A stretch of DNA of 64,000 nt. It comes from Candidatus Omnitrophota bacterium (GTDB lineage Bacteria; Omnitrophota; Gorgyraeia; JAGLLT01). Below are positions 1,164 to 58,581 of this stretch, one piece after another. Under the pieces are notes generated by a model. It saw nothing but the letters and a program-made list of their open reading frames with translations. It was not told where the DNA came from and searched no databases. How positions within the stretch are numbered: position 1 is the first letter of the stretch; each line of letters opens with the position of its first letter. The stretch spans positions 34,381 through 98,380 of the forward strand of contig JAGLLT010000039.1 of assembly GCA_023140385.1 (NCBI GenBank), written 5' to 3'. The translations under genes were made by a program, and so were the position numbers.

Positions 1164-2234
1164 ATGATTAATATAAACAAACTACTAATGGAATGTATAG
1201 ATAAGGGCGGGTCTGATCTGCATCTGACTGTGGGCAAGCCTCCCATACTCAGGCTGGACGGCCGCCTTGTGTCTCTGGATTTTCCTGAATTGAAACCGGA
1301 TGATGTAGAAAGCATGATGACTCAGATTACTGATGAAGAAAAAAGGCGCAAAGTTAGTGAGGTAGGCGGCTGTGACTTTGGTTTTGGTTTTGGCAAGAAC
1401 AGGTTTAGGGCATCAGTCTACCGCGGGAGAGGGGTAATAGGGATATCACTCCGGCTTATTCCCTCCGAACTACTTACTTTTAGTGAATTAGGATTGTCGG
1501 ACAAAGTAAGGGATCTGCTTTTTAGAACGAGGGGCCTGATTTTAGTTACCGGCCCGACCGGTTCAGGCAAAAGCACGACGCTGGCAACAATGATAAATTA
1601 CATAAATACAAATATTGACTGTCACATAATAACCATTGAAGATCCCATTGAATATTACCATCAGCATAAAAAGAGCATTATAACTCAAAGAGAGGTGGGT
1701 ATGGATGTGCCGTCATTCTCAGAGGCGATAATCAGGGGGTTGAGAAGCGACCCCGATGTTATCCTGGTAGGAGAGATGCGCGATCTGCCGACAATACAGG
1801 CAGCCCTTCTCGCGGCGGAAACAGGCCATCTGGTTTTTGCTACTCTCCATACTGTTAATGCCGCCCAGACGGTTGACAGGGTGGTAAACTCTTTTGCTAT
1901 TCATCAACAGGAGCAGGTGAGAGCACAACTTTCAGCCTGTATTCTGGCGGTCTTATCGCAAAAACTTTTACTGAGGAAGTCCAAAAAAGGGCGCGTTGCC
2001 TGTTTTGAAGTTATGGTGTCTACTTCTTCCGTACAGAGTCTAATACGGGAAAAAAAGACCTTTAGGATACCTTCTGAACTTCAAACGGGCTCAAAGTACG
2101 GCATGAAGCCTTTTGACTTTTCTCTTATTGAACTTTATCAAAATGGTATAATATCCAAAGATACGGCTTATAAAAACGCTTTTGACAAGGAGCAGTTTGA
2201 CACTATGTTTAAAGAGAGAGTGAATAGAAAATAA
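1164..2234 (+). CDS. pilT: Twitching-motility (retraction) ATPase PilT
   Basis: 356 aa with Walker A LVTGPTGSGKSTTLA and the PilT-type motifs GHLVFATLHT and AIHQQEQVRAQLS. The size matches PilT. A GAGGGG RBS lies upstream. Confidence 0.8.
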   Translation: MININKLLMECIDKGGSDLHLTVGKPPILRLDGRLVSLDFPELKPDDVESMMTQITDEEKRRKVSEVGGCDFGFGFGKNRFRASVYRGRGVIGISLRLIPSELLTFSELGLSDKVRDLLFRTRGLILVTGPTGSGKSTTLATMINYINTNIDCHIITIEDPIEYYHQHKKSIITQREVGMDVPSFSEAIIRGLRSDPDVILVGEMRDLPTIQAALLAAETGHLVFATLHTVNAAQTVDRVVNSFAIHQQEQVRAQLSACILAVLSQKLLLRKSKKGRVACFEVMVSTSSVQSLIREKKTFRIPSELQTGSKYGMKPFDFSLIELYQNGIISKDTAYKNAFDKEQFDTMFKERVNRK

Positions 2235-3958
2235 TGGCCGGAAAGCAGTTTAGAAGAAAACCGCTGGGCGAGATACTGTTAGACCAGGGTATTATATCCC
2301 AAAAGCACCTGGATGAGGCTCTGGATGAGCAAAAGAAGTCAGGAAAACTTTTAGGAAGGGTCCTTGTTGATTTAGGTTTTGTCAAAGAAAAAAGAATCTT
2401 AGAGGCCCTGGGTCTCCAGATAGGCATGAGAGTTACCGATCTGGAAAAGATGAAAATACCTGAAGAGATTATACAAGAAATTCCCGCTTCTTTGGCCCAG
2501 GTTTATAACGTTATTCCCGTGAAGCGGGAAGGGAATGTGTTGACGGTAGCTATCTCCGATCCGTTAAATATTAATGTCCTTGATGATTTGAGATTTGTAT
2601 TGAACTGTGAAGTGCAGGGAGCCATTGCCAGTGAAGATGTGATTAATGAAGCCATAGAAAAGTACTATGGGGGAAGCAAAAGCGATGAATCCTTAAGCGG
2701 CTTGGTTCGGGAGATAGAGGAAAACACCCCCGCGGTAATAACGTCAGAGGTAACGGAAACTCTGGATATAGCGGGCCTGAAGGAGCTGGCCTCTCAGGCG
2801 CCGGTGGTTAAGCTGGTTAATCTGGTTTTGCTGCAGGCGGTGAAGGATCAGGCCAGCGATATTCACTTTGAGCCTTTTGAAGATGAATTTAAGGTGAGAT
2901 ACAGGGTTGACGGAGTTTTATATGAGATAACCCATCCGCCGAAAAATTTGAGCCTGGCTATTACATCCAGAATTAAAGTAATGGCTAGTTTAGATGTAGC
3001 CGAGTCGAGGATGCCTCAGGATGGGCGCATTATGATGAGGGTTATGGGCAGAAGCATTGACTTGCGGGTTTCTACTTTGCCGACAATTTTCGGTGAGAGC
3101 GTAGTTATGAGAGTTTTAGACAGGAGTGTGGTAAGCTTGTCTCTGGATGAGATAGGATTGATGCCGGATCAAAAAGAAAAAATTATCACCCTAATACATA
3201 AACCCAACGGCATCATTTTATCTACGGGGCCTACCGGCTCCGGCAAAACAACTACCCTCTATTCGTGCCTGAGAAGCGTAAATAAAATAGAATTTAAAAT
3301 TATTACTACCGAAGATCCGGTAGAATATGATATCGCCGGCATTATACAGGTAAGCATTAAGCCCAAGATTAACTTGACATTTGCCACCTGCCTGAGACAT
3401 ATATTAAGGCAGGATCCGGATGTTATTATGGTAGGTGAAATTAGGGATAAGGAGACGGCCCAAATCAGTATTCAGGCCTCTTTGACGGGGCATCTGGTTT
3501 TTAGCACACTTCACACGAATGATGCCCCGAGTTCGGTGGCAAGGCTGATAGATATGGGCATTGAACCTTTTTTAATAACCTCCACCGTAGAGGCAATTAT
3601 TGCTCAGAGGTTAATACGAGTTCTTTGTCCCAAATGCAAAGAGCTTTATGTTCCTTCTGAATATGAGCTTTCTCAAATTGGCCTGGATCCGGGGAGGGTT
3701 GGAAGTAAGAAATTTTACCGGGCAAAAGGTTGCCGCGAGTGCAATAATATCGGATACAAAGGCCGCAGCGGGATATATGAGATACTGCTAATGAATGATA
3801 AAATAAGAGCCTTGATTATGGAAAAGTCACATAGCGCTCTTCTACGCAGAGCCGCGATAGAAGCCGGTATGCGCACATTAAGGGAAGACGGCCTGCTGAA
3901 AGTTTACGAGGGGTTGAGCAGCATTGAGGAGGTAGTCCGTGAAACCCAGGGTTATTAA
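2234..3958 (+). CDS. pilB: Full-length assembly ATPase PilB/GspE with N-terminal GspE_N (T2SSE_N) domain
   Basis: 574 aa. An N-terminal ~140-aa GspE_N-like domain is followed by SDIHFEP, Walker A STGPTGSGKTTT and GHLVFSTLHTND, then a C-terminal Cys4 zinc site. Confidence 0.85.
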   Translation: MAGKQFRRKPLGEILLDQGIISQKHLDEALDEQKKSGKLLGRVLVDLGFVKEKRILEALGLQIGMRVTDLEKMKIPEEIIQEIPASLAQVYNVIPVKREGNVLTVAISDPLNINVLDDLRFVLNCEVQGAIASEDVINEAIEKYYGGSKSDESLSGLVREIEENTPAVITSEVTETLDIAGLKELASQAPVVKLVNLVLLQAVKDQASDIHFEPFEDEFKVRYRVDGVLYEITHPPKNLSLAITSRIKVMASLDVAESRMPQDGRIMMRVMGRSIDLRVSTLPTIFGESVVMRVLDRSVVSLSLDEIGLMPDQKEKIITLIHKPNGIILSTGPTGSGKTTTLYSCLRSVNKIEFKIITTEDPVEYDIAGIIQVSIKPKINLTFATCLRHILRQDPDVIMVGEIRDKETAQISIQASLTGHLVFSTLHTNDAPSSVARLIDMGIEPFLITSTVEAIIAQRLIRVLCPKCKELYVPSEYELSQIGLDPGRVGSKKFYRAKGCRECNNIGYKGRSGIYEILLMNDKIRALIMEKSHSALLRRAAIEAGMRTLREDGLLKVYEGLSSIEEVVRETQGY

Positions 3959-3974
3959 AGAAAGGGTATAAAAT

Positions 3975-4135
3975 AACCAAGATATACCCAATGGGCACAA
4001 GCAAGAAACAATAACCAAATAATAACCAATGACCAAATTCGAATAACCAAACCAAGGCAGGAGCGAATGTTTGATGATTGGTTATTGAATATTGGTAATT
4101 GTTTGTATCTTGTATCTTGGTTATTGGTGATTTAA
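3975..4135. repeat. Intergenic array of ATAACCAA direct repeats (at least 5 copies) followed by inverted TTGGTTAT/GTATCTTGG copies, forming an imperfect long palindrome between pilB and pilC
   Basis: Read directly from the sequence. The left arm contains aataaccaa, ataaccaa and ccaagatatac. The right arm contains ttggttatt (x2) and gtatcttg (x2). Confidence 0.5.
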
Positions 4136-4185
4136 ACTTAAATATTTTCGACAATACAGGTGGAAAGACTAAGGAGGAGTAAACA

Positions 4186-5481
4186 TTGTCTAAGTTTGAG
4201 TATAAGGCTATAAATTCGAATGGGAAAGAGATATCCGGTTTTGTAGATGCCGTTAATACGCAGGAAGCTATCGGACGCATTAAGGATAAAGGGTATTATC
4301 CCATTCAACTTACTGAAACTGAGGATAAGTTCGTGTCTGAACCGGTGTCCACTTCCGGGGGGCATGTAAAAGCGCCTGTCAAAAAGGGCGGAGTGAGCAA
4401 AGAAATCGTAATTCCTTTTTTAGGTATAGGTGTTGTTAAGAGTCAGGATGTAGCCCTTTTTACCCGCCAGCTGGCCACGCTTATCGATGCCGGCTTGCCC
4501 CTGGTGAGAAGCCTGAATGTTTTGCATGACCAGTTGAAACTGGGGCCTTTAAAAGATGTCATAGAAAGCCTTTCCAAAGAAGTTTCGGCTGGAGGAACTT
4601 TAAGTGAAGCTTTGGCCAAGTATCCGAAAATTTTTAACTCCTTGTATATTAATATGATAAAGGCGGGTGAAGCCGGCGGCGTACTGGAGATAGTTCTGGA
4701 ACGGTTGGCGGAATTCAACGAAAAAAGTTTGGCCCTCATCGGAAAGGTTAAAGCGGCTATGGCCTACCCTGTTCTGGTGGTAGTTTTTTCTTCGGCTGTA
4801 CTTTTATTTTTAACTCTTTTCCTTATACCTAAATTTATGGATATTTTTGCTTCTATGGACATAGAAGAAATGCCGGTGCCGACAATGCTTATAATGAATT
4901 TTTCAAGGATGTTTAAAAATCCATTGTGTTTAGGTTTAGGCTTGGGGTTGGTGGCTGCTTTAATAATTTTATATAAAACCTTTTCAAAGATGAAAGGCTT
5001 TAAATTATTTATTGCTAAAATAAAACTGCGTGTGCCGGTGGCAGGGGAGTTGACGAGGAAGATTGAAGTTGCTATGTTCTCACGGACACTCGGCACCCTG
5101 ATATCAAGCGGGGTTCCTATTTTACAGGCCTTGAGAATTACCAGGGGCACAATGAGTAATGAACTTATATCCCAGGCTTTAGGCCGTGTGCACGATAGTA
5201 TCAGAGAGGGTGAATCTATTGCCGCCCCTCTTAAAGCAAGCGGAGCTTTTCCTCTTATGGTTGTCAATATGATTGATGTCGGGGAAGAAACAGGTTCCCT
5301 TGATAATATGTTGATCAAGGTGGCGGATATATATGATGGCGAAGTGGATACTACCATAAGCGCGCTTACCTCGATAATTGAGCCTTTTTTAATTATCAGC
5401 ATGGGCCTTATTGTCGGCTTTATCGTTATCGCGATGTTTTTGCCCTTAATTCAGTTGATGTCAAGTATTGGCGTGAATTAA
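4186..5481 (+). CDS. pilC: Type IV pilus / T2SS inner-membrane platform protein PilC/GspF
   Basis: TTG start with an AGGAGG RBS. The N-terminus MSKFEYKAINSNGKEISG is typical of PilC. The protein has two GspF repeats and three transmembrane (TM) segments. Confidence 0.85.
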   Translation: MSKFEYKAINSNGKEISGFVDAVNTQEAIGRIKDKGYYPIQLTETEDKFVSEPVSTSGGHVKAPVKKGGVSKEIVIPFLGIGVVKSQDVALFTRQLATLIDAGLPLVRSLNVLHDQLKLGPLKDVIESLSKEVSAGGTLSEALAKYPKIFNSLYINMIKAGEAGGVLEIVLERLAEFNEKSLALIGKVKAAMAYPVLVVVFSSAVLLFLTLFLIPKFMDIFASMDIEEMPVPTMLIMNFSRMFKNPLCLGLGLGLVAALIILYKTFSKMKGFKLFIAKIKLRVPVAGELTRKIEVAMFSRTLGTLISSGVPILQALRITRGTMSNELISQALGRVHDSIREGESIAAPLKASGAFPLMVVNMIDVGEETGSLDNMLIKVADIYDGEVDTTISALTSIIEPFLIISMGLIVGFIVIAMFLPLIQLMSSIGVN

Positions 5482-5512
5482 AGAAGAGGTTAATCGATGA
5501 TTATTGGCGTTG

Positions 5513-5541
5513 TTGAGTTAAGCCGGGAAATATGGTATAAT
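5513..5541 (+). promoter_or_regulatory. Candidate sigma70 promoter for the pseudopilin operon (TTGAGT-17-TATAAT)
   Basis: Read from the sequence: ttgagt taagccgggaaatatgg tataat. Confidence 0.4.
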
Positions 5542-5561
5542 TGTTTTGAGAGGATACTGGT

Positions 5562-5984
5562 GTGAAAAAGAGCGGATTTACTCTTATAGAGATGATGGTT
5601 GTGCTGATTATTATGGGCATTTTGGCGGGCTTGGTGACCAGTGCCACTATCAAAACTTTGCAGGACGCGAAGAAGAGCGAAGCGGAGGTAGTTATTTCAG
5701 CGGTTGCCTCAGCCTTAGCCAGATATGAGTCTGACATTGGCGATTATCCACCGGGGAACGGTTCAGGTAACGCTTTTTGGTACTACCTGCAGGATGATAG
5801 GAGCCTTGATGTTTCCTCGGCATGGAACGGGCCCTATATGACCTTTGATAATGATGATATATCAGGTAACGCGGTAAAAGACCCTTGGGGCAATGCTTAT
5901 AACTATAAGAACTACCCAGGGGTTCATAATCCCGCCTTTGTTGATATAGAGGATGGTTCCGGAGAAGATGTTAATAACTGGTGA
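5562..5984 (+). CDS. GspG-like major pseudopilin, paralog 1 (prepilin class III signal)
   Basis: KKSG|FTLIEMMVVLIIMGIL prepilin cleavage/methylation motif. GspG-like core with YESDIGDYPP...WNGPYM...DPWGNAYNY. Confidence 0.75.
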   Translation: MKKSGFTLIEMMVVLIIMGILAGLVTSATIKTLQDAKKSEAEVVISAVASALARYESDIGDYPPGNGSGNAFWYYLQDDRSLDVSSAWNGPYMTFDNDDISGNAVKDPWGNAYNYKNYPGVHNPAFVDIEDGSGEDVNNW

Positions 5985-6442
5985 GAAAGATGAAAAATAA
6001 AGGTTTTACCCTAATTGAGATGATAGTGGTTATGACTATTATCGGCATCCTGGCCGCTTTAATTTCGGCGGCGACCTTTAGGGCTATAGAGGATGCTAAA
6101 GAAAGTAAAGCGGCGGCGGCTATTTCCGCCGTAGAAGCGGCTCTGGCAATGTATGAATCTGACGTAGCAGGTTATCCTCTGCAAGCCGCCGGCGATAATG
6201 CCTTTAAATCCCATCTCCAGAATGATGATGGCGCGGTTGGCTGGAACGGCCCATATATGAACTTTATAGATGAAGACCTGGACAAGCCTGCCGCGATAGG
6301 AGGAACCAAGTATATGGATCCCTGGGGCAATGCCTACCAGTATAAATGTCCGGGTAATAATGGTGTTTATGATATCTGGTCTTGCGGTAATGACGGAGTT
6401 GATGATAGTGGCGGCGGAGATGATATTAATGCCTGGGATTAA
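5981..6442 (+). CDS. GspG-like major pseudopilin, paralog 2
   Basis: KG|FTLIEM N-terminus and the same GspG-like core. It ends ...GNDGVDDSGGGDDINAWD. Translation may begin at GTG 5981 or at ATG 5990. Confidence 0.75.
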   Translation: MRKMKNKGFTLIEMIVVMTIIGILAALISAATFRAIEDAKESKAAAAISAVEAALAMYESDVAGYPLQAAGDNAFKSHLQNDDGAVGWNGPYMNFIDEDLDKPAAIGGTKYMDPWGNAYQYKCPGNNGVYDIWSCGNDGVDDSGGGDDINAWD

Positions 6443-6471
6443 GGTTGTACTATTAAGATAAATGGTGGTTT

Positions 6472-6942
6472 ATGGTGAAAAAAGTCAGGATTAAAAGAAA
6501 TAAGCGCTTAAAAGGCTTTACACTTATAGAGATGATGTTTGTGATTGTTATTATCGGCATCCTGGCCAGTTTGATGACTACCGGAGCCTTCAGGGCTATC
6601 AGGGAGGCGAGAGAAGAGAAGGCCAAAGTTGCCATCTCGGCCATAGAGGCCGCCCTTGAGATGTACAAACTTGATGTGGGCTCTTATCCGGCGGGAGACG
6701 GCTCAGGCAACAGCTTTAAATCCCACCTGCAAAATGATGATGGCGCGGTTGGTTGGAGCGGGCCCTATATGAGTTTCAACTCCACAAACAACAGTATAAA
6801 TGATCCTTGGGATAATGCCTACCGGTATAAATGCCCGGGCACTAGTCACGGTAGTACTGAAAATCCCCTTGATATCTGGTCATGCGGCAATGATGAAGTT
6901 GATAACAGCGGCGGCGGGGATGACCTTAACACATGGGATTAA
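6472..6942 (+). CDS. GspG-like major pseudopilin, paralog 3 (long basic leader)
   Basis: Leader MVKKVRIKRNKRLKG|FTLIEMM. Its C-terminus is nearly identical to that of paralog 2. The upstream leader block is duplicated before 6972. Confidence 0.75.
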   Translation: MVKKVRIKRNKRLKGFTLIEMMFVIVIIGILASLMTTGAFRAIREAREEKAKVAISAIEAALEMYKLDVGSYPAGDGSGNSFKSHLQNDDGAVGWSGPYMSFNSTNNSINDPWDNAYRYKCPGTSHGSTENPLDIWSCGNDEVDNSGGGDDLNTWD

Positions 6943-6971
6943 GGCTGGACTGTTAAGATAAATGGTGGTTT

Positions 6972-7523
6972 ATGATGAGAAAAGTCAGGATTAAAAGAAA
7001 TAAATTCTTAAAAGGTTTTACCCTGATGGAAATGATGGTGGTAATTGCCATAATGTTTATTGTAGTTGCCGTAGCAATGCCCAACTTCTGGGGCGGCCGC
7101 GGTAGTAAGGAGCACAAAGGAGCCGCCAGAAGAATTGCCTCAACCTTGCAAGTTGCTAAAGGTTGTGCCGAGGCTCAGAATGTTGTTCATCACTTCCTCG
7201 CCTGGATAAACTCAGGCAACACTATCAGTATGGATATATATAAGACTACCTATGCAACCTTTCCACCCGCGAACAAGGTGGGTAAAAGCGAAAAAATGAC
7301 CCTGTCAGCCCCCTTTAATATATCAACTACCTTAGATGTTCCCAGTGATGGTAGTACCTGGGGCGCGTACTATATTAAATTCAATCCTGAGGGAAGCGCC
7401 GATGACGGTGACGCCGCCATCGGAGATGAGACCATCACTATCTGGAATACAGCTACCGGAAAGTCTATTGATATTACCATTTCAGAGGATACGGGCTGTA
7501 TCTCTATCGGAGATCTTTATTAG
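6972..7523 (+). CDS. Minor pseudopilin, GspH/FimT-like
   Basis: Leader MMRKVRIKRNKFLKG|FTLMEMM (a duplicated leader) followed by a hydrophobic helix and a 183-aa body. Confidence 0.6.
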   Translation: MMRKVRIKRNKFLKGFTLMEMMVVIAIMFIVVAVAMPNFWGGRGSKEHKGAARRIASTLQVAKGCAEAQNVVHHFLAWINSGNTISMDIYKTTYATFPPANKVGKSEKMTLSAPFNISTTLDVPSDGSTWGAYYIKFNPEGSADDGDAAIGDETITIWNTATGKSIDITISEDTGCISIGDLY

Positions 7524-7597
7524 AAGGAAAGGTTCTCTTGTATTTCTTTCCCTGAAATTTCAGCAAAATGATACAGTTATACAGCAAAATATTTTGC

Positions 7598-7627
7598 TTG
7601 ACAGTTATCCTTTTCTATTGTTAAAAT
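7598..7627 (+). promoter_or_regulatory. Candidate sigma70 promoter (TTGACA-17-TAAAAT) overlapped by the 14-bp perfect palindrome GCAAAATATTTTGC
   Basis: Read from the sequence just upstream of the PEP-CTERM gene. Confidence 0.45.
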
Positions 7628-7729
7628 AAACAAACGGGCTTTATATCTTATTTTTAACTTTCTATCTATCTTGCATGTTTGTTTAAAAGGGATTTTTCCG
7701 GCAAGATAACAAAGGCGGAAAGGAGTATT

Positions 7730-8485
7730 ATGAGAAGGTTTGTTCTTGCAATTTTATTATTATTTGTAGCTTTAAGCGTTTGTTCATTATCAAACGCCCA
7801 ACAGATTGCCCCCCGCAAATGGTCTCAACTGCCCGATATGGAGTGGGGTTTTGATGTATATTCAACAATTATGCCGTACGGTTACAGTAGTAATGTCGCT
7901 GATGACTGGCTCTGCACCAACGGACTGCCTATTACCGATATCCACTGGTGGGGTTCATACGGTGATTGGTCTATGGACGCGCGTCCGGAAAATACTATAA
8001 CCGGTTTTCAGATAGATATATTTGGCTATTATGCGCCGTACCCATTTTATATTCCTCACGCGAGATATAATCTTACTATAGAAGAAGTGAATGAGACCTA
8101 CTGCGGCTTACAGGAATATACAGGACACAGCGCATTTGAGTACTCTATTATACTTGATGAACCCTTTAATCAGGAAGAAGGAAGTACCTACTGGCTGATG
8201 ATAGCGGCTTATTTAGAAGATGGGACTTCTTATGAGTGGGGCTGGAAAACAACTGATCCTGATTCAAGGTATGGTTGCGGCGCGGTTAAATACACAGGAG
8301 ATAGTTGGGAGTGGATTCCAATTGAATACAGCGATTACGTAGATCCAAGTCATCCCTATTATGATTACGGCCCGGTTAATATGGCCTTTGAGCTGACTAC
8401 TATCCCTGAACCGGCCGCGATAATTATGCTGGGAAGTTTGGCTACCGGATTGTTCGGCATAGCAGGCATAAAAAGAAAAAGGTAA
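7730..8485 (+). CDS. Secreted Trp/Tyr-rich protein with a C-terminal PEP-CTERM sorting signal
   Basis: AGGAG RBS. N-terminal signal peptide MRRFVLAILLLFVALSVCSLSNA. The C-terminus IPEPAAIIMLGSLATGLFGIAGIKRKR* has PEP, a hydrophobic TM segment and a basic tail. Confidence 0.7.
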   Translation: MRRFVLAILLLFVALSVCSLSNAQQIAPRKWSQLPDMEWGFDVYSTIMPYGYSSNVADDWLCTNGLPITDIHWWGSYGDWSMDARPENTITGFQIDIFGYYAPYPFYIPHARYNLTIEEVNETYCGLQEYTGHSAFEYSIILDEPFNQEEGSTYWLMIAAYLEDGTSYEWGWKTTDPDSRYGCGAVKYTGDSWEWIPIEYSDYVDPSHPYYDYGPVNMAFELTTIPEPAAIIMLGSLATGLFGIAGIKRKR

Positions 8486-8566
8486 AAAAGGTTACACCTA
8501 TTTAATTCCTGACTCTAACTATAATAGCAGTCTATAAAATAGGTGTGGCCTTTTTTTCAGATAAAG

Positions 8567-9049
8567 ATGATTGATAAAGGTAAGTTAACGGGATTTACCC
8601 TGATTGAGCTTTTAGTTGTTTTGCTTATTGCCGGCGTAGTAACGGCAATAGCTGTTCCTTACTGTTGGGGCGGGTATTCAAGCGCGGAGGTTAAAGCAAG
8701 CAGTAGAACCATTGCTTCGACTTTACGGCGGGCGAAGATTAACGCCGAGGCTCAGGGTAAGCGGTACCGTGTAGACTTTACCCCTTCAGGCAGCTGTCTT
8801 GATATGGATATCTATACAGATTTAAGCAGTTCGACGCCTACCAAGGTAGGTAAAACAGAAAAAATAAAGCTAAGTTCCGCGTTTGTAATTACCACTACCT
8901 TTACTAATTCCAAAGCCCTCTTTACCCCTCACAGCACTTCCAACGGAGGCACCGTTAAAATAAAAAATTTAAAAAATGGTAAAAGTATTAAAATAACCGT
9001 CTTGTCGATTACCGCCAGAATAAAGGTTAAGGATTACGAGGAAGATTAG
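8567..9049 (+). CDS. Minor pseudopilin, GspH/FimT-like paralog
   Basis: KLTG|FTLIELLVVLLIAG prepilin motif. It is paralogous to the 6972 protein (WGG...RTIASTL...AEAQ...MDIY). The start could be GTG 8543 or ATG 8567. Confidence 0.6.
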   Translation: MIDKGKLTGFTLIELLVVLLIAGVVTAIAVPYCWGGYSSAEVKASSRTIASTLRRAKINAEAQGKRYRVDFTPSGSCLDMDIYTDLSSSTPTKVGKTEKIKLSSAFVITTTFTNSKALFTPHSTSNGGTVKIKNLKNGKSIKITVLSITARIKVKDYEED

Positions 9050-9158
9050 TATGCCGGCTTTGGCCGCCCCCGGAGATATATTTTACCCAAAAGCACCTTT
9101 TATTTAATTTGATATAATGGCCTATTTATGGTAAGATATATATGCAGGAGGAATACAA

Positions 9159-9557
9159 ATGAGAAAAAGTAAGGGTTTTACGCTTTTAGAGATTGTGATT
9201 GCCCTGGCCATTCTGGTGATAGGTTTGGTTGGTATTTTGAGCCTCTTTCCGGTAGGTTTTCAGGCCTCCCGCAGAGCCTGTATGCTGACAGAGGCCACCA
9301 TTCATGCTCAGCAGGAGATAGAGAATTTTAAGCGGTTGGGGTATAGTCATCTTGATACAACTTTTACTGATGGGGCAGCTTCTAAGGTTGACGGGACGGC
9401 TGGTTGGACTGACTTTGGCGATGGTATTGAGTGTCAAGTTACTGTTACAGAGATAAACCCGCCCGGCGGCCTCAAAAGCGTTGAAGTTGAAATTCGATGG
9501 AAGGAGAAAGGAAGCTTTAAAAGTGAGACATTTATTACGTATATTGCCGAAAAATAA
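9159..9557 (+). CDS. Minor pseudopilin, GspI/PilV-like
   Basis: MRKSKG|FTLLEIVIALAIL prepilin motif. The protein is 132 aa. Confidence 0.6.
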   Translation: MRKSKGFTLLEIVIALAILVIGLVGILSLFPVGFQASRRACMLTEATIHAQQEIENFKRLGYSHLDTTFTDGAASKVDGTAGWTDFGDGIECQVTVTEINPPGGLKSVEVEIRWKEKGSFKSETFITYIAEK

Positions 9558-10143
9558 AAAAGGCTTTACCTTAATTGAAGTTTTAATAGCCAGCGTCATT
9601 CTGGTGATAGTGATGGGAAGCATGACTTTGGTATTTATCGAAGCCAACCGCGCCTGGACCCAGAGTGAGGCCAAACTGCAGGTTTATCAAAACGCCAGGG
9701 AAGCCCTCAGTCGGATGACAAGAGAACTGGCCTGCGCCTATCAGAGTTCATCGTCTACTACTCTGGAGAAGTTTAACTGGGATGATAGCCAGAAAAAGCT
9801 TGCTTTTACCGCCGCCTTTAATGTTGTTTATGACACCGATGAGTACGATTTAACTAAATTAGGCTACTGGCTTGACACTACGACTATGACACTGAAGAGA
9901 TATAAGAAGGATTATGGCGGCGGCGGCGGCGGAACGTGGAACCCGATAGCGGAAAATATTAAAACTTTAGCTTTCAAATATTACGATCATAAATTAGATA
10001 TTTGGGTCAGCGTTTGGGATCCTGCTGGTGCTACTCCCAGAGATTATTTGCCCAGGGCGGTTGAGATTACCATAACTGCCGAAGATAAACAGGGAAGGTT
10101 TACCAGAACTTTCGTAGATACAGTTTATATACCGATGTCTTAA
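9523..10143 (+). CDS. Minor pseudopilin, GspJ/PilW-like
   Basis: KNKKG|FTLIEVLIASVIL prepilin motif, about 200 aa. GTG 9523 has a GGAGAAAGGA RBS and overlaps the end of the upstream gene. Confidence 0.55.
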   Translation: MRHLLRILPKNKKGFTLIEVLIASVILVIVMGSMTLVFIEANRAWTQSEAKLQVYQNAREALSRMTRELACAYQSSSSTTLEKFNWDDSQKKLAFTAAFNVVYDTDEYDLTKLGYWLDTTTMTLKRYKKDYGGGGGGTWNPIAENIKTLAFKYYDHKLDIWVSVWDPAGATPRDYLPRAVEITITAEDKQGRFTRTFVDTVYIPMS

Positions 10144-29296: not shown

Positions 29297-29911
29297 GTGA
29301 TTGGTAAAATGTACCTAAGAAAATCAATTGAGACTTATTTAAAAGATCTTTCCGCGAAAAAATCGGCTCCGGGCGGAGGCAGCGCGGCCGGCCTGACCGC
29401 GGCTCTGGGAGCCTCTTTGGCTTGTATGGTTCTTCAATTTTCCGCGAAAAACAACCGGACAGCCGCGTTATTGAAAAAAGCCGGGTTTCTCAGGAAGAAA
29501 TTTGCCTGCCTAACGGACGATGACATCACGGTTTATCAAAAAGTTTCTCTTGCCTATAAGCTGCCCAAATCAACCGAAACTCAGAAAGCAAGAAGAAGAG
29601 AACGGATTCAGCGGTCTTTAAAATCAGCCCTTTCTGTCTGTGAGGAACTTTGCGAATTGTGTTATGAAGGTATGATGATTACAAAGAGACTGCTTAGGGT
29701 CGGTAATGAAAAATTGATTTCCGATACGGGAATAAGTCTTCTTCTTTTTGAAGCGGCCTACCAGTCATCTCTCTATAACGTTAAAATCAACCTTAGAGGA
29801 ATTAAGGATATAAACTTGAGAAAAAAAGTTAGGCGAAACATAACGGCCTTAAGTAAAAAAGTATCAGCTTTAAAGATAGAAGTTGTAAAAAGAGTAGATA
29901 ACGTCTTATGA
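29297..29911 (+). CDS. fchA: Methenyltetrahydrofolate cyclohydrolase / formimidoyl-THF cyclodeaminase-like (FTCD_C family)
   Basis: KKSAPGGGSAAGLTAALGASLACMV motif. The gene is adjacent to folD. Confidence 0.65.
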   Translation: MIGKMYLRKSIETYLKDLSAKKSAPGGGSAAGLTAALGASLACMVLQFSAKNNRTAALLKKAGFLRKKFACLTDDDITVYQKVSLAYKLPKSTETQKARRRERIQRSLKSALSVCEELCELCYEGMMITKRLLRVGNEKLISDTGISLLLFEAAYQSSLYNVKINLRGIKDINLRKKVRRNITALSKKVSALKIEVVKRVDNVL

Positions 29912-30831
29912 GCGCTAAAATTTTAGACGGCAAGTCCATTGCCTCAAAAATTAAAGAGGAATTAAGGAAAGAAATAGAGTCTTTGATAAAAAAATATCAA
30001 AAGGTTCCTGTCTTAGTTTCTATTCAGGTTAGCCGGGACGCGGGTATTGAGAGTTATGTAAAAGCTCAAAAGAAGGCGGCTGACCGCCTGGGAATTGGAT
30101 ATCAGCGGCTGGTATTACCAGAAGACATTGACGCCGGAGGACTTGTTGAAAAAATCGAAGAACTAAATAATAGAGATGAGGTTACGGCTATTATCCTACA
30201 ACAGCCTTTATCCGAAAGGGTAATGGAGGAAGAAAGGCGGGGCAACATATCAAAAACAGCCTTTGAGCAGTTTATAGATGCCGCGAAGGATGTTGAAGGG
30301 ATGCATTTAAAAAATTTAGGAAATTTGTTTTACGGCTCTAAGTTAGAAACAGCTGGTTTTGGCAAACTCGCTCCCTGCACGGCTATGGCGGTTATGGAAT
30401 TATTAGATTCCCTAAATAGAGATCCGCGCGAAGAAAATTTACGCGGCAAAGAAGTGGTGATAGTGGGGCACAGCAAAATTATAGGCAAGCCTTTAGCCTT
30501 ATTATTATTAAATAGATTCGCGACAACCACTGTTTGTCATATTGCTACTTCAGAAAGAAATCATTTAGAGGAGCACGTCAAAAGAGCCGAAGTTTTAATT
30601 TCAGCGGTGGGGCAGCCCGGCCTAATAAAAGGCGGTTGGATAAAAGAAGGAGCGGTTGTTATTGACATTGGAACCAGCAGGATAAATGGCAAGCTTGCGG
30701 GTGACGTAGAATTTGATAAGGCCAAAGAGCGAGCTTCCTACATAACGCCTGTGCCGGGCGGAGTGGGGCCGTTGACGACAACTATGCTGATGAAAAACGT
30801 CATTACTTTATATCGTAAGGCCAATGATTAA
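29908..30831 (+). CDS. folD: Bifunctional methylene-THF dehydrogenase/cyclohydrolase
   Basis: ILDGK start and the C-terminal YITPVPGGVGPLT. It carries an insertion of about 20 aa relative to typical FolD. Confidence 0.85.
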   Translation: MSAKILDGKSIASKIKEELRKEIESLIKKYQKVPVLVSIQVSRDAGIESYVKAQKKAADRLGIGYQRLVLPEDIDAGGLVEKIEELNNRDEVTAIILQQPLSERVMEEERRGNISKTAFEQFIDAAKDVEGMHLKNLGNLFYGSKLETAGFGKLAPCTAMAVMELLDSLNRDPREENLRGKEVVIVGHSKIIGKPLALLLLNRFATTTVCHIATSERNHLEEHVKRAEVLISAVGQPGLIKGGWIKEGAVVIDIGTSRINGKLAGDVEFDKAKERASYITPVPGGVGPLTTTMLMKNVITLYRKAND

Positions 30832-31708
30832 AAAAATATCGGACATCCTGAAGAAAAAAGAACGGACTCTTTCCTTTGAGTTTTTTCCTCCGAAGACACA
30901 GAAGGGCCGCCTTAAACTGTTTGAGACAGTGCTTCTATTAAAAGACCTCCAGCCTGATTTTGTTTCTGTAACTTACGGAGCAGGCGGCAATACCAGAGAG
31001 CTGACGCTGGATGTAGTATGTGAGTTAGAAAAACGTTTTGGCCTTTCCGTAATGCATCATCTTACCTGCATCGGACACAGCTTGGGGGAAATAGAGAAGA
31101 TAATTAGCCAAATGCGGGAGAAAGGCATTTGTAATGTTCTGGCCTTATATGGTGATATTCCTCTTGATGAAGCTATGCCCTCTTTAGCCCTCGGCGAGTT
31201 AAAGTACTGTTATCAGCTTTGCCGGCTGTTAAGGTCTTACGGAGATTATTTTAGTATAGGCGTGGCCGGTTTTCCTGAAGGGCATATAAACTCTCCTGAT
31301 AAAGAAACTGACATAAAACATCTTAAGGCCAAGTTAACATCCGGAGGGGAGTTTGTAATAACCCAGCTTTTTTTTGACAATAACGACTACTTTGATTACG
31401 TTAAAAAAATAAGGAAAGCGGGCATAGCGGCGAAGGTTATCCCGGGCGTACTGCCTATAACAGATTATTATAAGTTATTAAACTTCTGCCAGCGATGCGG
31501 CGCCGGTGTTCCCGAGTTAGTTCATAGACTGTTTAAGCCTATAGCGGATAACAAGGAGACTGTTTATAAAAAAGGGGTTGAATTTACGCTGAAACAGTGC
31601 CGCCAGCTTCTTGCCGGCGGAGCGCCCGGCCTCCACTTCTTTACTCTTAATAAAGCTGATCCGGCTAGGGAAATAGTAAACGAGCTCAGGCGTTCAAAAA
31701 GTGGTTAA
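30824..31708 (+). CDS. metF: 5,10-methylenetetrahydrofolate reductase
   Basis: LSFEFFPPKT N-terminus and a TIM-barrel MetF pattern. Confidence 0.8.
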   Translation: MIKKISDILKKKERTLSFEFFPPKTQKGRLKLFETVLLLKDLQPDFVSVTYGAGGNTRELTLDVVCELEKRFGLSVMHHLTCIGHSLGEIEKIISQMREKGICNVLALYGDIPLDEAMPSLALGELKYCYQLCRLLRSYGDYFSIGVAGFPEGHINSPDKETDIKHLKAKLTSGGEFVITQLFFDNNDYFDYVKKIRKAGIAAKVIPGVLPITDYYKLLNFCQRCGAGVPELVHRLFKPIADNKETVYKKGVEFTLKQCRQLLAGGAPGLHFFTLNKADPAREIVNELRRSKSG

Positions 31709-31719
31709 GGAGTTATCAT

Positions 31720-32562
31720 ATGCGGGATGATAGAATAACTATACCTCATTTAGTTAAGATGAAAAAGGACAAGCGTAAAATTACTATGCTCACCGCCTAC
31801 GATCATCCTCTGGCTTTGTTGGTTGACAGGTGCGGAATTGACATTATTTTAGTCGGAGACTCGTTAGGCAATGTTGTTTTGGGTTACGATTCGACAGTAC
31901 CGGTAACAATGGAGGAGATGATACATCACGCGAAGGCCGTCCGCCGGGCGGTCAGCCATGCCTTTTTGATAGGTGATTTACCATTTATGTCATATAATAT
32001 AAGCCCCAGGGAAGCCGTAAGGAACGCCGGCAGGTTTTTAAAAGAAGCAGGGTGTGACGCGGTAAAACTGGAAGGCGGTGAAGAGACGGTGGACGCGGTA
32101 AGCCGCATAGTAAAGGCCGGTATACCGGTTTTGGGCCATCTGGGCCTTACCCCCCAGACTATTTCCAAGCTTGGAGGTTTTAAGGTGCAGGGAAGGGACG
32201 CGAAAGGGGCGCGTAAAATTATAAACTCCGCTTTAGCCCTTCAGGAAGCGGGGTGTTTTGGTATTGTGCTTGAATGTATACCTGATAAGGTAGCCGGAAT
32301 TATATCGGAAAAGCTTGATATTTTTACTTTGGGCATCGGCGCCGGGCCGCGGTGCGACGGCCAGGTTTTAGTGCTTCATGATCTACTGGGGCTTTACAGC
32401 GGATTTAAGCCGAAATTTGTTAAACAGTACGCTGACTTATCGGGCGATATACAGTCAGCTGTGACTGCTTTTAAAAATGATATAGAAGAGGGCAGGTTCC
32501 CTACGAAGGATTTTTCTTTTGCTATGAGTGATAAAGAGGCGCGGAAGTTAAATGAAGACTAA
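31720..32562 (+). CDS. panB: 3-methyl-2-oxobutanoate hydroxymethyltransferase
   Basis: KITMLTAYDHPLALLVDRCGIDIILVGDSLGNVVLGYDST is a near-canonical PanB motif. Confidence 0.9.
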   Translation: MRDDRITIPHLVKMKKDKRKITMLTAYDHPLALLVDRCGIDIILVGDSLGNVVLGYDSTVPVTMEEMIHHAKAVRRAVSHAFLIGDLPFMSYNISPREAVRNAGRFLKEAGCDAVKLEGGEETVDAVSRIVKAGIPVLGHLGLTPQTISKLGGFKVQGRDAKGARKIINSALALQEAGCFGIVLECIPDKVAGIISEKLDIFTLGIGAGPRCDGQVLVLHDLLGLYSGFKPKFVKQYADLSGDIQSAVTAFKNDIEEGRFPTKDFSFAMSDKEARKLNED

Positions 32563-33649
32563 AAGAATTTTTTTAGCCGCGACAAAACAGAATGACGGCA
32601 AGACATCTGCCAGCCTGGGGCTGATAAGCGCTTTTTCAAAGAAAACGGCCAATGTAGGCTTTATAAAACCGGTCGGACAGAGATATCTGATAGAAAAAGG
32701 GGAAAAGATTGACGAAGATTCTATTTTAATCAAAGGGGTTTGCGGATTAAAAGACGGCTTAAAGGATATGTCGCCTATAGCCGTTGAAAGAGGATTTACG
32801 GCAAGATATATCGAGGGCGGAAAGAAGCAGGTCTTAGCCGGGTTGGTAAAAAGGTCTTTTGAGCGTGTATCAAAAGATAAAAATCTGGTTATTATTGAAG
32901 GAACCGGGCACGCCGGAGTGGGCAGTGTTTTTGATCTGTCAAATGCCAGGGTTGCCAGCTTACTTAAAAGTAAGGTTATTATAATCTCCAGCGGAGGTGT
33001 CGGCCGGCCAATTGATGAAGTAATGTTAAGCAAAGCTTTATTTGATAGGGAGAAAGTGGATGTTTTGGGGGTTATCATAAACAAGGTTTTACCGGGTAAG
33101 TATAAAAAAATAAAGCGCTTAATCAATCTGGGCTTTAAGCGCAAAGGACTAAAAGTTTTTGGAATTATTCCTTATTATAAGATGTTATCCAGGCCTACGG
33201 TTGGCCAAATACTTGAAGAAGAAAAATCCATAAAATATCTCTGCGGCAAAAAAGGGCTGGAAAATCCGGTGGATAAGGTTATTGTAGGGGCAATGGAGCC
33301 GCATGAGGCGTTAAATTATATATCTGATAACAGTCTGATTATTACACCGGGCGACAGGGAAGACATAATGCTTACATGTATGAGTTCTCATCTGGCCTCG
33401 GGTGAAAGCGAAAGCAGTATATCCGGCATAGTTTTAACCGGAGGAATAAAGCCTCACAGGAGTATATTAAATTTAATAAAGAAAACGGATATACCTGTCC
33501 TCGTGGCAGAGGAAGATACTTATACGATTACCTCTAAAATTCATGATTTAATTATTAAGGTGAAACCCCGCGACGCGGAAAAAACTGAAATTATAAAAAA
33601 GATGGTTGAGCGGTATGTTGACATTGACTGTCTTTACAACTCTATTTAA
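32552..33649 (+). CDS. AAA_26 (BioD-like) + DRTGG domain protein resembling the N-terminal region of phosphotransacetylase
   Basis: FLAATKQNDGKTSASLGL P-loop-like segment and the PGDREDI (DRTGG) motif. Confidence 0.5.
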   Translation: MKTKRIFLAATKQNDGKTSASLGLISAFSKKTANVGFIKPVGQRYLIEKGEKIDEDSILIKGVCGLKDGLKDMSPIAVERGFTARYIEGGKKQVLAGLVKRSFERVSKDKNLVIIEGTGHAGVGSVFDLSNARVASLLKSKVIIISSGGVGRPIDEVMLSKALFDREKVDVLGVIINKVLPGKYKKIKRLINLGFKRKGLKVFGIIPYYKMLSRPTVGQILEEEKSIKYLCGKKGLENPVDKVIVGAMEPHEALNYISDNSLIITPGDREDIMLTCMSSHLASGESESSISGIVLTGGIKPHRSILNLIKKTDIPVLVAEEDTYTITSKIHDLIIKVKPRDAEKTEIIKKMVERYVDIDCLYNSI

Positions 33650-33681
33650 TCAAAATTTGATTATACTTTTATGGAAAAATT

Positions 33682-33710
33682 AAAAGCCCGCTTGGATAAA
33701 GCGGGCTTTT
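33682..33710. terminator. Bidirectional intrinsic terminator (aaaagcccgc-ttggataaa-gcgggctttt)
   Basis: Perfect GC stem flanked by an A-run and a T-run. It serves the + strand DRTGG gene and the minus-strand micro-ORF. Confidence 0.7.
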
Positions 33711-33738
33711 AAAAAGATAAATTAATTTTATTAAATTC

Positions 33739-33852
33739 TTACTTTTTTTTCTTCGCTGCTTTTTTCTTTACTACCTTTTTCTTTGTAGTTGCTTTTTTCT
33801 TTGTTGTCGCTTTTTTCTTTACTACTTTCTTTTTAGCCGCTTTTTTTGCCAT
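33739..33852 (-). CDS. 37-aa lysine/alanine-rich basic protein (histone H1 tail-like). Not in the six-frame track because it is shorter than 60 aa
   Basis: Minus-strand ATG at 33852 is preceded by a GGAGGTG RBS. Translation is MAKKAAKKKVVKKKATTKKKATTKKKVVKKKAAKKKK* with 18-nt periodic codon repeats. It has its own promoter and terminator. Confidence 0.5.
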   Translation of the reverse strand: MAKKAAKKKVVKKKATTKKKATTKKKVVKKKAAKKKK

Positions 33853-33899
33853 CTCCAACCACCTCCCCTTTTTTTACAATCCCTGTTAAATCCAAAATA

Positions 33900-33928
33900 A
33901 TTATACACTATAATTTAAAAAAAAACAA
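33900..33928 (-). promoter_or_regulatory. Candidate minus-strand promoter for the micro-ORF (TTGTTT-17-TATAAT)
   Basis: Read as the reverse complement of 33900-33928. Confidence 0.35.
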
Positions 33929-33946
33929 GACAGCTGAAATATTTTT

Positions 33947-33975
33947 TTGACAAAGCGGCTTTAATAAATTATAAT
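33947..33975 (+). promoter_or_regulatory. Consensus sigma70 promoter for the rnf operon (TTGACA-17-TATAAT)
   Basis: ttgaca aagcggctttaataaat tataat, about 50 nt upstream of the rnfC TTG start. Confidence 0.55.
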
Positions 33976-34024: not shown

Positions 34025-35338
34025 TTGTTAAAAACATTTACCGGCGGCATCCGTCTCGCGGGACATAAAGAAGCGACCGCGAACAGCTCAATAGAAATCC
34101 CATCTTTACCCGAGCAGGTTATTATTCCTCTTATTCAGTATGGCGGCAGGTTGTGTGAACCATTAGTAAAAACCGGCGAGAGAGTAAAGGCCGGACAGCT
34201 TATCGGTTTTTCTCAAGACTCTTTGTCGGTTGCTGTGCACTCGAGCATTTCAGGAAAGGTGGCGCGGATAGGCGAGTTTGCTCATCCTGATTTTGAAAAG
34301 GCCAGGGCTATTTTGATAGAATCTGACGGGTTAGACGAAAAGGCGCGGGAGGTTTCGGAAAAAGATTATCAAAGTTTATCGAAGGAAGAATTATTAAATC
34401 GTATAAGAAATGCCGGAGTTGTAGGGATGGGCGGCGCTTCTTTTCCGACTCATGTTAAATTAAACCCGCCGCGTAATAAAAAGGTTAACTTTTTTGTCGT
34501 AAATATGTTTGAGTGTGAGCCCTATATAACTACCGATTATCGTTTAGCAATAGAAAGATGCGAAGAAATTTTATCCGGCGTAAATATTTTTTTAAAAATT
34601 CTTGAGGTAGAAACCGCCTATATTGCCATAGGGGCTAATAAAAAAGAGGCTCTGGATATTTTAAAAGAGAAGACCGCTAAATTTGAGCGGATAAAGATAG
34701 CGGCCCTTAAGCCAAAATTTCCTCAGGGTGAAGAAAAGTGTTTGATAAAGGCGGTGTTAAACAAAGAGGTTCCCCGCGGCAAACTGCCTTATGAGGCGGG
34801 GGCTATTGTTTGTAATCCCCAGACTATAATTACGGTTTATGAAGCTGTTTGTTTAGGCAAGCCTTTGTATGAAAAGGTGATAACGGTTACGGGAAAAGGT
34901 ATAAAAAAACCGGGGAATCTGAAGGTTAGAATTGGAACACTGTTAAAAGATATTATAGAGTATTCCGGCGGAGTATTTGAAGAGGAGATGGAGGTAATCT
35001 TTGGCGGGCCTATGATGGGGAGGGCGCAGACTGATATCAATGTGCCCGTTGTTAAAGGAACGTCGGGAATAATTTTTCTTCCCGCGAAAAGCTTAGACCT
35101 TTCGAAAGAAAGCGCCTGCATCAGGTGCGGCAGATGTGTTGAAGTCTGCCCTGTCAGGCTGCTTCCCCTGGAAATTAATAAGTTAGTAAAGAATAAGAAG
35201 TGGGAAAGATTAAACGCTTATCATATTTCTGAGTGTATGTTGTGCGGAGCCTGTGCTTATGTCTGTCCTTCCAAGATTCCTCTTGTGCAAAGATTAAAGC
35301 TGGGGCAGAAGATTACTAAAAGATTGCAAAAAAAGTAA
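34025..35338 (+). CDS. rnfC: Rnf/Rsx electron transport complex subunit C
   Basis: The N-terminus GGIRLAGHKE...GFSQDSLSVAVHSSISGKV and the NADH/FMN domain are present. Two 4Fe-4S motifs are CIRCGRCVEVCP and CMLCGACAYVCP. Confidence 0.8.
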   Translation: MLKTFTGGIRLAGHKEATANSSIEIPSLPEQVIIPLIQYGGRLCEPLVKTGERVKAGQLIGFSQDSLSVAVHSSISGKVARIGEFAHPDFEKARAILIESDGLDEKAREVSEKDYQSLSKEELLNRIRNAGVVGMGGASFPTHVKLNPPRNKKVNFFVVNMFECEPYITTDYRLAIERCEEILSGVNIFLKILEVETAYIAIGANKKEALDILKEKTAKFERIKIAALKPKFPQGEEKCLIKAVLNKEVPRGKLPYEAGAIVCNPQTIITVYEAVCLGKPLYEKVITVTGKGIKKPGNLKVRIGTLLKDIIEYSGGVFEEEMEVIFGGPMMGRAQTDINVPVVKGTSGIIFLPAKSLDLSKESACIRCGRCVEVCPVRLLPLEINKLVKNKKWERLNAYHISECMLCGACAYVCPSKIPLVQRLKLGQKITKRLQKK

Positions 35339-51079: not shown

Positions 51080-51154
51080 GGCGGCGTAGCCAAGCGGTAA
51101 GGCAGTGGTCTGCAAAACCATTATTCAGCGGTTCGAGTCCGCTCGCCGCCTCCA
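51080..51154 (+). tRNA. tRNA-Cys (anticodon GCA), CCA-encoded
   Basis: Cloverleaf derived by hand. Acceptor stem ggcggcg/cgccgcc. Anticodon loop cuGCAaa. T-arm agcgg-ttcgagt-ccgct. Confidence 0.85.
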
Positions 51155-51462: not shown

Positions 51463-51549
51463 GGGCGAGTGGTGGAATGGCAGACACGTGGGACTTAAAA
51501 TCCCATGGCTGAATAAGCCGTGTGGGTTCGACTCCCACCTCGCCCACCA
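51463..51549 (+). tRNA. tRNA-Leu (anticodon TAA), long variable arm, CCA-encoded
   Basis: Acceptor stem gggcgag/ctcgccc. Anticodon loop cuUAAaa. Variable stem ggct/agcc. T-arm gtggg-ttcgact-cccac. Confidence 0.85.
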
Positions 51550-51732: not shown

Positions 51733-51809
51733 GGGCGGTTGGCGCAGTTGGTTAGCGCGCCACGTTGACATCGTGGAGGTCACTGGTTCGAATCCAGTAC
51801 CGCCCACCA
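51733..51809 (+). tRNA. tRNA-Val (anticodon GAC), CCA-encoded
   Basis: Acceptor stem gggcggt/accgccc. Anticodon loop uuGACau. T-arm actgg-ttcgaat-ccagt. Confidence 0.85.
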
Positions 51810-58333: not shown

Positions 58334-58581
58334 TAGAGAAAGTCCAACCTGACCGCTATTGCAAAAATGCTTGCTTTTGAGCTTGGATTGTGATATATTT
58401 AGTGTAGATAATAATTTCCCTGCTATGTACGTGATGAGCAGATAGACTTGAGCCAACACAGTTTGCCCGGGAACCTAACTTCATACTGCCCGCGGGCGGA
58501 AATGAGAAGGTACCCACTTAGTAGACCGGGTTCAAGCCTATCACGCACGCACGGCATCCGCGGGGATTTCTTTTTAGGCCT

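Follow-up and report, generated by a model that had tools for sequence, protein, structure and literature searches.

A lysine-repeat micro-gene divergent from the rnf operon in Omnitrophota: conservation, coding constraint and candidate roles of its product

The region between a DRTGG-domain protein gene and the rnf operon of a Candidatus Omnitrophota bacterium raises the question of whether a very short, lysine-rich open reading frame (ORF) on its minus strand is a gene and, if so, what its product could do. The region belongs to a stretch of 64,000 nucleotides (nt) of contig JAGLLT010000039.1, which was analysed as a whole and is referred to here as the window. The first-pass annotation had proposed for this position a divergently transcribed micro-gene with an AKKK-type repeat protein as its product. 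The proposal is strongly supported by the results of this study, i.e., the presence of the cassette in nine Omnitrophota lineages, the conservation of the reading frame, the synonymous-only divergence between close relatives and the concentration of G at third codon positions, and the micro-ORF is very probably a real protein-coding gene.

Product, conservation and coding constraint

The minus-strand ORF of 37 amino acids (aa) was recovered with exactly the sequence quoted previously (Table 1). Its product is composed of six units (AAKKK, VVKKK, ATTKKK, ATTKKK, VVKKK and AAKKKK) and contains 21 Lys residues (~60%), no Asp or Glu and no aromatic residues; its net charge is about +21, and its calculated mass is 4.1 kDa (4139 Da, or 4008 Da once Met is removed). 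When all ORFs of at least 12 aa in the window were scanned, it was the sole one longer than 16 aa in which Lys and Arg together made up at least 45% of the residues. Periodicities of 15, 18 and 48 nt were detected at the micro-ORF by TRF. The order of the units in residues 5-37 is mirror-symmetric (AA, VV, ATT / ATT, VV, AA), which fits the 48-nt period; this symmetry may reflect either the duplication history of the repeat or chance.

The ORF had been described as unannotated, which holds in the sense that no name or family has been given to it. However, the identical 37-aa product has already been predicted by gene callers on 11 public contigs, each time between the DRTGG gene and rnfC. The 21-aa ortholog at L015 was missed by the gene callers. 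The window itself is 99.96% identical to contig DAOWFJ010000038 of assembly GCA_030638025.1, and the product of its rnfC matches exactly a protein assigned to Candidatus Omnitrophota MAGs.

Further lineages were reached through homologs of the two neighbouring proteins and then through the contigs encoding them. Nine Omnitrophota lineages were found to carry the cassette at the junction of the DRTGG gene and rnfC, including all lineages in which the DRTGG protein is 68-73% identical. All orthologous products consist of [A/V/T/P]2-K3 pentapeptide repeats with occasional hexamers; K, A, T, V and P are the residues used, with R only rarely, acidic residues are absent (D+E = 0) and 57-73% of the residues are basic. 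Across eight aligned lineages, both hexamers of the rnf promoter, the CTTG and TAGTGTATA[A/C]T blocks upstream of the micro-gene, the GGAGGTG sequence and the RTG-GCA-AAR-AAR start are invariant or nearly so. ATG and GTG starts interchange at a constant distance from the Shine-Dalgarno (SD) sequence, GTG being used in most relatives, and the 3' end of each ortholog is a hairpin of -18 to -23 kcal/mol. The promoter blocks, SD sequence, start and terminator are thus retained while the length of the ORF varies.

In L013, L022, L023 and L024, where the DRTGG protein is 58-61% identical, it is encoded next to different genes, and the flanks examined contained no ORF rich in Lys. In L026 and L027, with RnfC 45-50% identical, a CheX/CheC-like gene lies upstream of rnfC instead. 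In L013, where the micro-gene is absent from this position, the DRTGG gene is followed by a 91-aa Cys-rich ORF (1736-2011, plus strand) that has CxxC pairs and a C-terminal tail of basic character (KKPKIKNQRLK). A homolog search with the 78-aa ortholog gave no match at E ≤ 0.001 among 8000 scored candidates; this null result is uninformative on the distribution of the micro-proteins because none of them is present in the collection searched, as verified by exact look-ups.

The pattern of substitution points to constraint on the protein. In the sister lineage (L002, L003 and L008), the DNA surrounding the micro-gene is 94.2-94.5% identical to that of the window and the ORF differs at three sites, all of which are synonymous third positions. 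When 175 all-purine codons of seven lineages were pooled, G was found 0, 2 and 89 times at codon positions 1, 2 and 3, respectively, with the same pattern in every lineage (chi-square p ~1e-37, a value inflated by the fact that the repeat units are not independent). As G is confined to third positions, the codons continue to specify Lys, never Glu and hardly ever Arg. In five of the eight orthologs, stops are found in the other two frames; in the shortest orthologs these frames are also open. It is the reading frame, and not merely the nucleotide repeat, that is conserved in the relatives.

The longest run of A in the ORF is 6-8 nt, compared with 9-11 nt in synonymous shuffles (P ≤ 0.05 in five of seven lineages). 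This is consistent with selection against slippery poly(A), and for faithful expression, in an expressed gene; it may reflect avoidance of slippage by the ribosome or the polymerase. The choice of codons within KKK is also patterned, with usually AAG, then AAA and then AAR, and the A-runs remain at or below 8 nt.

Repeat number changes rapidly. The product varies about five-fold in length among lineages, from 15 to 78 aa, and a difference is found even between L020 and L021, whose DRTGG proteins do not differ and whose DNA is 99.64% identical over 7 kb. In their 171-nt ORF, one indel of a 15-nt unit and an adjacent double substitution were observed; the remaining 6.8 kb contains eight point differences. 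Though small, these numbers would agree with a hot spot of repeat slippage or recombination in the micro-ORF. The contigs of L028, L029 and L030, which are independent assemblies of one further lineage (runs SRR11803957, SRR11799735 and SRR11802934), all end at the same point within the Lys-repeat ORF, 232 nt upstream of rnfC. Apparently, assemblies from short reads are broken by the 15-nt repeats, and longer alleles would thereby be concealed.

Table 1. Features at the micro-gene locus (positions in the window) and orthologous ORFs in other lineages
Feature	Position	Strand	Remarks
Coding sequence of the 37-aa lysine-repeat micro-protein	33852..33739	minus	ATG 33852..33850, TAA 33741..33739; product MAKKAAKKKVVKKKATTKKKATTKKKVVKKKAAKKKK
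Shine-Dalgarno sequence GGAGGTG	33866..33860	minus	7-nt spacer to ATG; invariant in eight aligned lineages
Conserved block TAGTGTATAAT, including -10 TATAAT (33905..33900)	33900..33910	minus	read by hand
Weak -35 (c)TTGTTT (TTGTTT 33928..33923)	33923..33929	minus	17 nt upstream of the -10; CTTG conserved
Hairpin terminator AAAAGCCCGC-loop-GCGGGCTTTT	33680..33712		14 bp; T-run on minus strand; -20.5 kcal/mol
rnf operon promoter TTGACA-17-TATAAT	33947..33975	plus	12/12 consensus; both hexamers conserved at orthologous loci
Convergent neighbour, AAA_26 + DRTGG domain protein (BioD-like N-terminal part of phosphotransacetylase)	32552..33649	plus	synteny anchor
Divergent neighbour rnfC, rnf operon gene 1	34025..35338	plus	synteny anchor
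L012 ortholog			15 aa; MAKKKKAAKKKKKKK
L015 ortholog			21 aa; MAKKKVAKKKTAKKKTAKKKK
L016/L017 ortholog			30 aa
L025 ortholog			50 aa
L021 and L020 orthologs			51 and 56 aa, respectively
L018 ortholog			78 aa
L028-L030 ortholog			begins MAKKVAKKKVAKKKV; partial, at contig end

Expression signals and genomic setting

The micro-gene is furnished with signals for both transcription and translation. The SD sequence, which had been called strong, is among the longest in the window: an anti-SD match of this length is present at only two of 55 other ORF starts (large plus-strand ORFs), most of which have matches of 3-5 nt. The proposed minus-strand promoter is likewise present, with a consensus -10 and conserved blocks. 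However, its -35 hexamer matches only three of the six consensus positions, which is under the threshold of the promoter scan; the pair was therefore not listed by the scan and was found by hand count. The promoter becomes more credible because CTTG and TAGTGTATA[A/C]T are kept in all aligned ortholog lineages. On the opposite strand, the rnf promoter was confirmed as a perfect match placed back-to-back with that of the micro-gene, the two -35 hexamers being separated by 18 nt.

The terminator had been described as perfect and bidirectional. A strong hairpin with a T-run on the minus strand is present, as is the symmetry of A-tract, stem and T-tract, but "perfect" was generous, since the tail on the plus strand has only four T. 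The hairpin probably also serves the convergent DRTGG gene. No significant fold was found in the micro-gene transcript beyond this hairpin (z = -1.4), and no match was obtained for the micro-gene region in the Rfam scan. A leader-peptide attenuator or a structured small RNA was considered and ruled out, since there is no structure beyond the terminator and no downstream gene on the same strand.

The terminator loop is exactly inverted between lineages that are 94% identical, with GCCCGC-TTTATCCAA-GCGGGC in the window (33680-33712) and GCCCGC-TTGGATAAA-GCGGGC in L002 (~4141-4172). The inverted form was also seen in L003 and L008, and BLAST reported a 32-nt perfect match to the reverse strand. 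This looks like a hairpin flip caused by intrastrand template switching or by inversion at the palindrome.

The statement that the micro-gene is the only minus-strand gene in 64 kb is consistent with our results. All credible protein genes of the window lie on the plus strand, and the minus-strand ORFs of at least 150 aa all overlap plus-strand genes. Two of the minus-strand ORFs, at 3816-4280 and 9186-9674, are partly overlapped and lie amid plus-strand type II secretion genes; they gave no Pfam or other family match and look like shadow ORFs. The surrounding cluster (2234-10143) is of the type II secretion/type IV pilus-like kind, with T2SSF, pseudopilins carrying the N-methylation motif and GspH- and GspJ-like proteins. 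The strand bias over the 64 kb is extreme, and it extends to a 6S RNA (58414-58570, plus strand, 83 bits) and to three tRNA genes (51080-51151, 51463-51546 and 51733-51806), all on the plus strand.

The genes upstream of the micro-gene (window 29297-33649; also L001/L015-L025) encode, in conserved order, an FTCD_C protein, FolD, MetF (MTHFR), PanB and the AAA_26+DRTGG protein. This set of C1/folate (Wood-Ljungdahl-type) genes stands directly in front of rnf. The DRTGG gene of more distant Omnitrophota instead adjoins genes for CdhD and the corrinoid Fe-S protein.

Comparison with known lysine-rich proteins

The product had been called histone-H1-like. In composition and in the periodicity of its pentamers it does resemble Hc2 and H1's C-terminal domain (CTD), but the profile scores are far under the cutoffs and the non-repeat domains are absent. 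The 37-aa peptide had no Pfam or NCBIfam match, and none to HC2 (PF07382) even at E ≤ 10. With the 56- and 78-aa orthologs, HC2 was the only Pfam family to surface, at 13-14 bits against a gathering cutoff of 40. The longer orthologs scored 8.2 bits against the NCBIfam Hc2 model NF038052 (cutoff 135) and 7.7-9.2 bits against NF038053, the Burkholderiales/Bordetella H1-like family (cutoff 80). A spurious match to Rpf (NF046106) was equally weak (~8 bits against a cutoff of 180). Judged by these scores, the sub-threshold matches are compositional echoes rather than signs of family membership.

The closest likeness is to Hc2 (HctB; PF07382, NF038052). Previous work showed that Hc2 is a succession of pentamers, in which two basic residues are combined with A, V, T or P, that hexamers occur now and then and acidic residues do not, and that its size varies by in-frame loss or duplication of repeat elements (PMC2848022). 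The micro-protein shares the Lys-rich pentamers with A/V/T/P, the occasional hexamers, the lack of acidic residues and the in-frame gain and loss of repeats between close strains. Moreover, Omnitrophota and the chlamydial hosts of Hc2 both belong to the PVC group (NCBI taxonomy). On the other hand, Hc2 is 165-237 aa long, so that the micro-proteins (15-78 aa) are 3-10 times smaller, and it has two basic residues per pentamer in place of three Lys. Hc2 also has a conserved non-repeat N-terminus (24 aa) and C-terminal region (69 aa), both of which are missing from the micro-proteins, where M-A-K-K is followed by the repeats and a K-run. Common ancestry with Hc2 cannot be shown for sequences of such low complexity.

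The CTD of linker histone H1 and the BpH1-type proteins (NF038053) are, like the micro-protein, Lys/Ala-rich, acid-free polycations of low complexity. The H1 CTD undergoes a transition from disorder to helix on DNA, and the predicted helical propensity of the micro-protein would fit such a transition. BpH1 also varies in repeat number (PMC2848022). However, the micro-protein lacks the winged-helix globular domain and the S/TPKK motifs, has a much higher charge density and is 5-10 times smaller. No Pfam match to the Linker_histone winged helix was obtained, and there is no room for that domain in a peptide made up of 37 aa of repeats. Compared with an H1 tail, the micro-protein is rich in Lys, Ala, Thr and Val and acid-free, yet it is 57-73% basic and nearly free of Pro, and the likeness is compositional only.

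Two further comparisons concern proteins of similar character. The KPAA repeats of Pseudomonas AlgP bind DNA and space polyphosphate (polyP) granules, and their number is a mutational hot spot and varies between species (PMC9239181). The disordered KPAA region of PhaF binds mRNA and activates translation (PMC12818456). AlgP and PhaF thus share with the micro-protein a short tandem Lys-containing repeat of changeable number. They differ from it in having a period of 4 (KPAA, 25% Lys) and a folded N-terminal domain by which localisation or specificity is conferred, as the micro-protein has a period of 5-6 (xxKKK), no KPAA and no other domain. In the small-cell variants of Coxiella burnetii, which have a condensed nucleoid, ScvA and Hq1 are very small, highly basic DNA-binding proteins (PMC4766238). 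The micro-protein is also very small and highly basic, a likeness by description only. ScvA is rich in Arg and Gln and is not known to be a Lys pentamer repeat. No paper joining Omnitrophota with 'lysine-rich' was found in the literature collection searched. By analogy, then, the micro-protein is best regarded as a stand-alone miniature analogue of the bacterial Lys-rich H1/Hc2-like repeat proteins.

Candidate roles of the micro-protein

The AF2 prediction from the single sequence is one continuous helix with a pLDDT of 92. For a peptide with a charge of +21, the model would indicate a propensity realised on a polyanion rather than a stable fold. The non-Lys residues are spread all around the predicted helix, which has no amphipathic face. 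An amphipathic antimicrobial helix is ruled out by this distribution together with the lack of a signal peptide.

A possible course of events could be as follows. A sigma-70-type promoter with a weak -35 and a consensus -10 would drive a monocistronic mRNA of ~220 nt with an unstructured, purine-rich body. The perfect SD sequence would recruit ribosomes to the ATG, the 37 codons would be translated and the strong hairpin would end transcription; judging from these signals, the micro-gene is probably strongly expressed. The predicted product comprises Met-Ala-Lys-Lys, the [A/V/T/P]2-3-K3 repeats and a terminal Lys run. Being an acid-free polycation repeat, it cannot have a hydrophobic core; it should be disordered when free and may turn helical on a polyanion. 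Because the peptides carry charges of +11 to +46, are acid-free and lack hydrophobic residues, they would be expected to act electrostatically, binding polyanions without sequence specificity and neutralising their charge. Such a mechanism would parallel that of the Lys-rich repeat regions of Hc2, the H1 CTD and AlgP/PhaF. The number of repeats, and hence the valency, shifts rapidly through in-frame gain and loss of 15-nt units.

The chromosome, through compaction of the nucleoid, would be the leading candidate partner of the peptide, with RNA/ribosomes or polyP as alternatives. Small cells have been reported for the phylum Omnitrophota. The nucleoid role is ranked first because of these small cells and the analogy with Hc2 and the H1 CTD. 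A stand-alone polycationic micro-protein that binds polyanions non-specifically, with the nucleoid as the leading candidate, is, on this analogy, the reading we consider likely. Several points weigh against it. No significant homology to any characterised DNA-binding family was found (8-14 bits against cutoffs of 40-135). The micro-gene was found in one clade only and is absent at this position in more distant Omnitrophota. The 15-aa ortholog of L012 is very short for a chromatin protein. Moreover, the micro-gene is strictly linked to the promoter region of rnf, which could be a sign of regulation in cis. In order of decreasing likelihood, the candidate roles are placed as nucleoid, RNA or ribosome, cis-regulation of rnf, and polyP or export, with a non-coding element essentially excluded.

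The translated peptide could instead act on RNA or the ribosome rather than on the chromosome, as a tiny basic ribosome-associated protein or as an RNA chaperone or translation modulator, and this we regard as unlikely but worth serious consideration. In size it would then compare with very small basic ribosomal proteins, or in mechanism with the KPAA region of PhaF. Hc2 binds DNA and also binds RNA, more strongly than Hc1 does and strongly enough to repress translation (PMC2848022), and the mRNA binding and translational activation by the Lys-repeat region of PhaF (PMC12818456) are of the same kind. The very strong SD sequence and the compact cassette suggest high expression, which would suit such a role. 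However, the five-fold variation in length among close relatives, with a difference even within the 99.6%-identical pair, is unlike the behaviour of stoichiometric ribosomal proteins. No ribosomal-protein match was found in NCBIfam or Pfam, and there is no linkage to ribosomal or translation genes.

It is improbable that the act of transcription or translation matters and not the peptide. The micro-gene would in this case be a divergent unit tuning the rnf promoter through supercoiling or competition for RNA polymerase, or else a Lys-codon-rich sensor ORF that signals, by being translated, the status of lysyl-tRNA or of energy, and from which read-through would run antisense to the DRTGG operon. 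The back-to-back layout with a consensus rnf promoter is conserved wherever the micro-gene is found, the micro-gene is not seen where the rnf/DRTGG synteny is broken, and the conservation of Lys codons alone would also suit a codon sensor. Nevertheless, no minus-strand gene lies downstream but only the strong terminator shared with the convergent gene, and the transcript shows no alternative or antiterminator structure (z = -1.4). Known leader peptides have few regulatory codons and stable lengths, and here there are 11-46 Lys codons and a five-fold range of lengths. The limitation of the non-Lys positions to the small residues A, V, T and P and the exclusion of acidic residues argue for selection on the product.

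The peptide could also organise polyP granules or another polyanion, e.g., a cell-envelope polymer, or be exported as an antimicrobial or host-attack peptide by a possibly predatory or parasitic cell; we consider this more improbable still. The Lys-repeat domain of AlgP localises to polyP granules and spaces them (PMC9239181). Oligolysines are, as a matter of general knowledge, membrane-active polycations. On the other hand, a signal peptide is lacking, none of the adjacent genes is a transporter, immunity or ppk gene, and the predicted helix has no amphipathic face.

That the locus is no gene at all, but a purine-rich tandem DNA repeat or small RNA with an incidentally open frame, would agree with its low complexity, with a 15-nt period that keeps the frame automatically and with the open alternative frames of the shortest orthologs, but it is dismissed on account of the SD sequence and ATG/GTG start held invariant at fixed spacing, the 0/2/89 distribution of G in purine codons, the synonymous-only divergence, the stops in other frames in five of eight orthologs and the lack of any Rfam match or significant RNA structure.

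Known bacterial Lys-rich H1-like repeats always occur within larger proteins, in which a further domain, conserved or folded, is present. The micro-gene, in contrast, encodes nothing but the repeat, which may be as short as 15 residues; it possesses a promoter, a near-perfect ribosome-binding site and a terminator of its own and is conserved across a clade of an uncultivated phylum of the PVC group. A blind spot is thereby exposed, in that genes of this type escape HMMER-type searches and clustered protein databases, fall under short-ORF thresholds and are lost where repeats break an assembly. A class of oligolysine micro-proteins may be widespread and yet systematically missed, as homology tools discount composition, protein databases omit such products, the short forms are passed over by gene callers and assemblies break off in the repeat. 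It is a tentative suggestion, and a rather doubtful one at present, that these are the first recognised members of a class of encoded, repeat-only 'oligolysine' micro-proteins (15-80 aa), serving as a main intracellular polycation, i.e., as counter-ion and condenser of the nucleoid or RNA, in ultra-small Omnitrophota with a valency tuned by rapid in-frame slippage. If the micro-protein is abundant, it would provide a minimal natural system for learning how much chromatin or RNA organisation can be obtained from pure polycation valency, and would illustrate how slippage of repeats can make a trait tunable in evolution.

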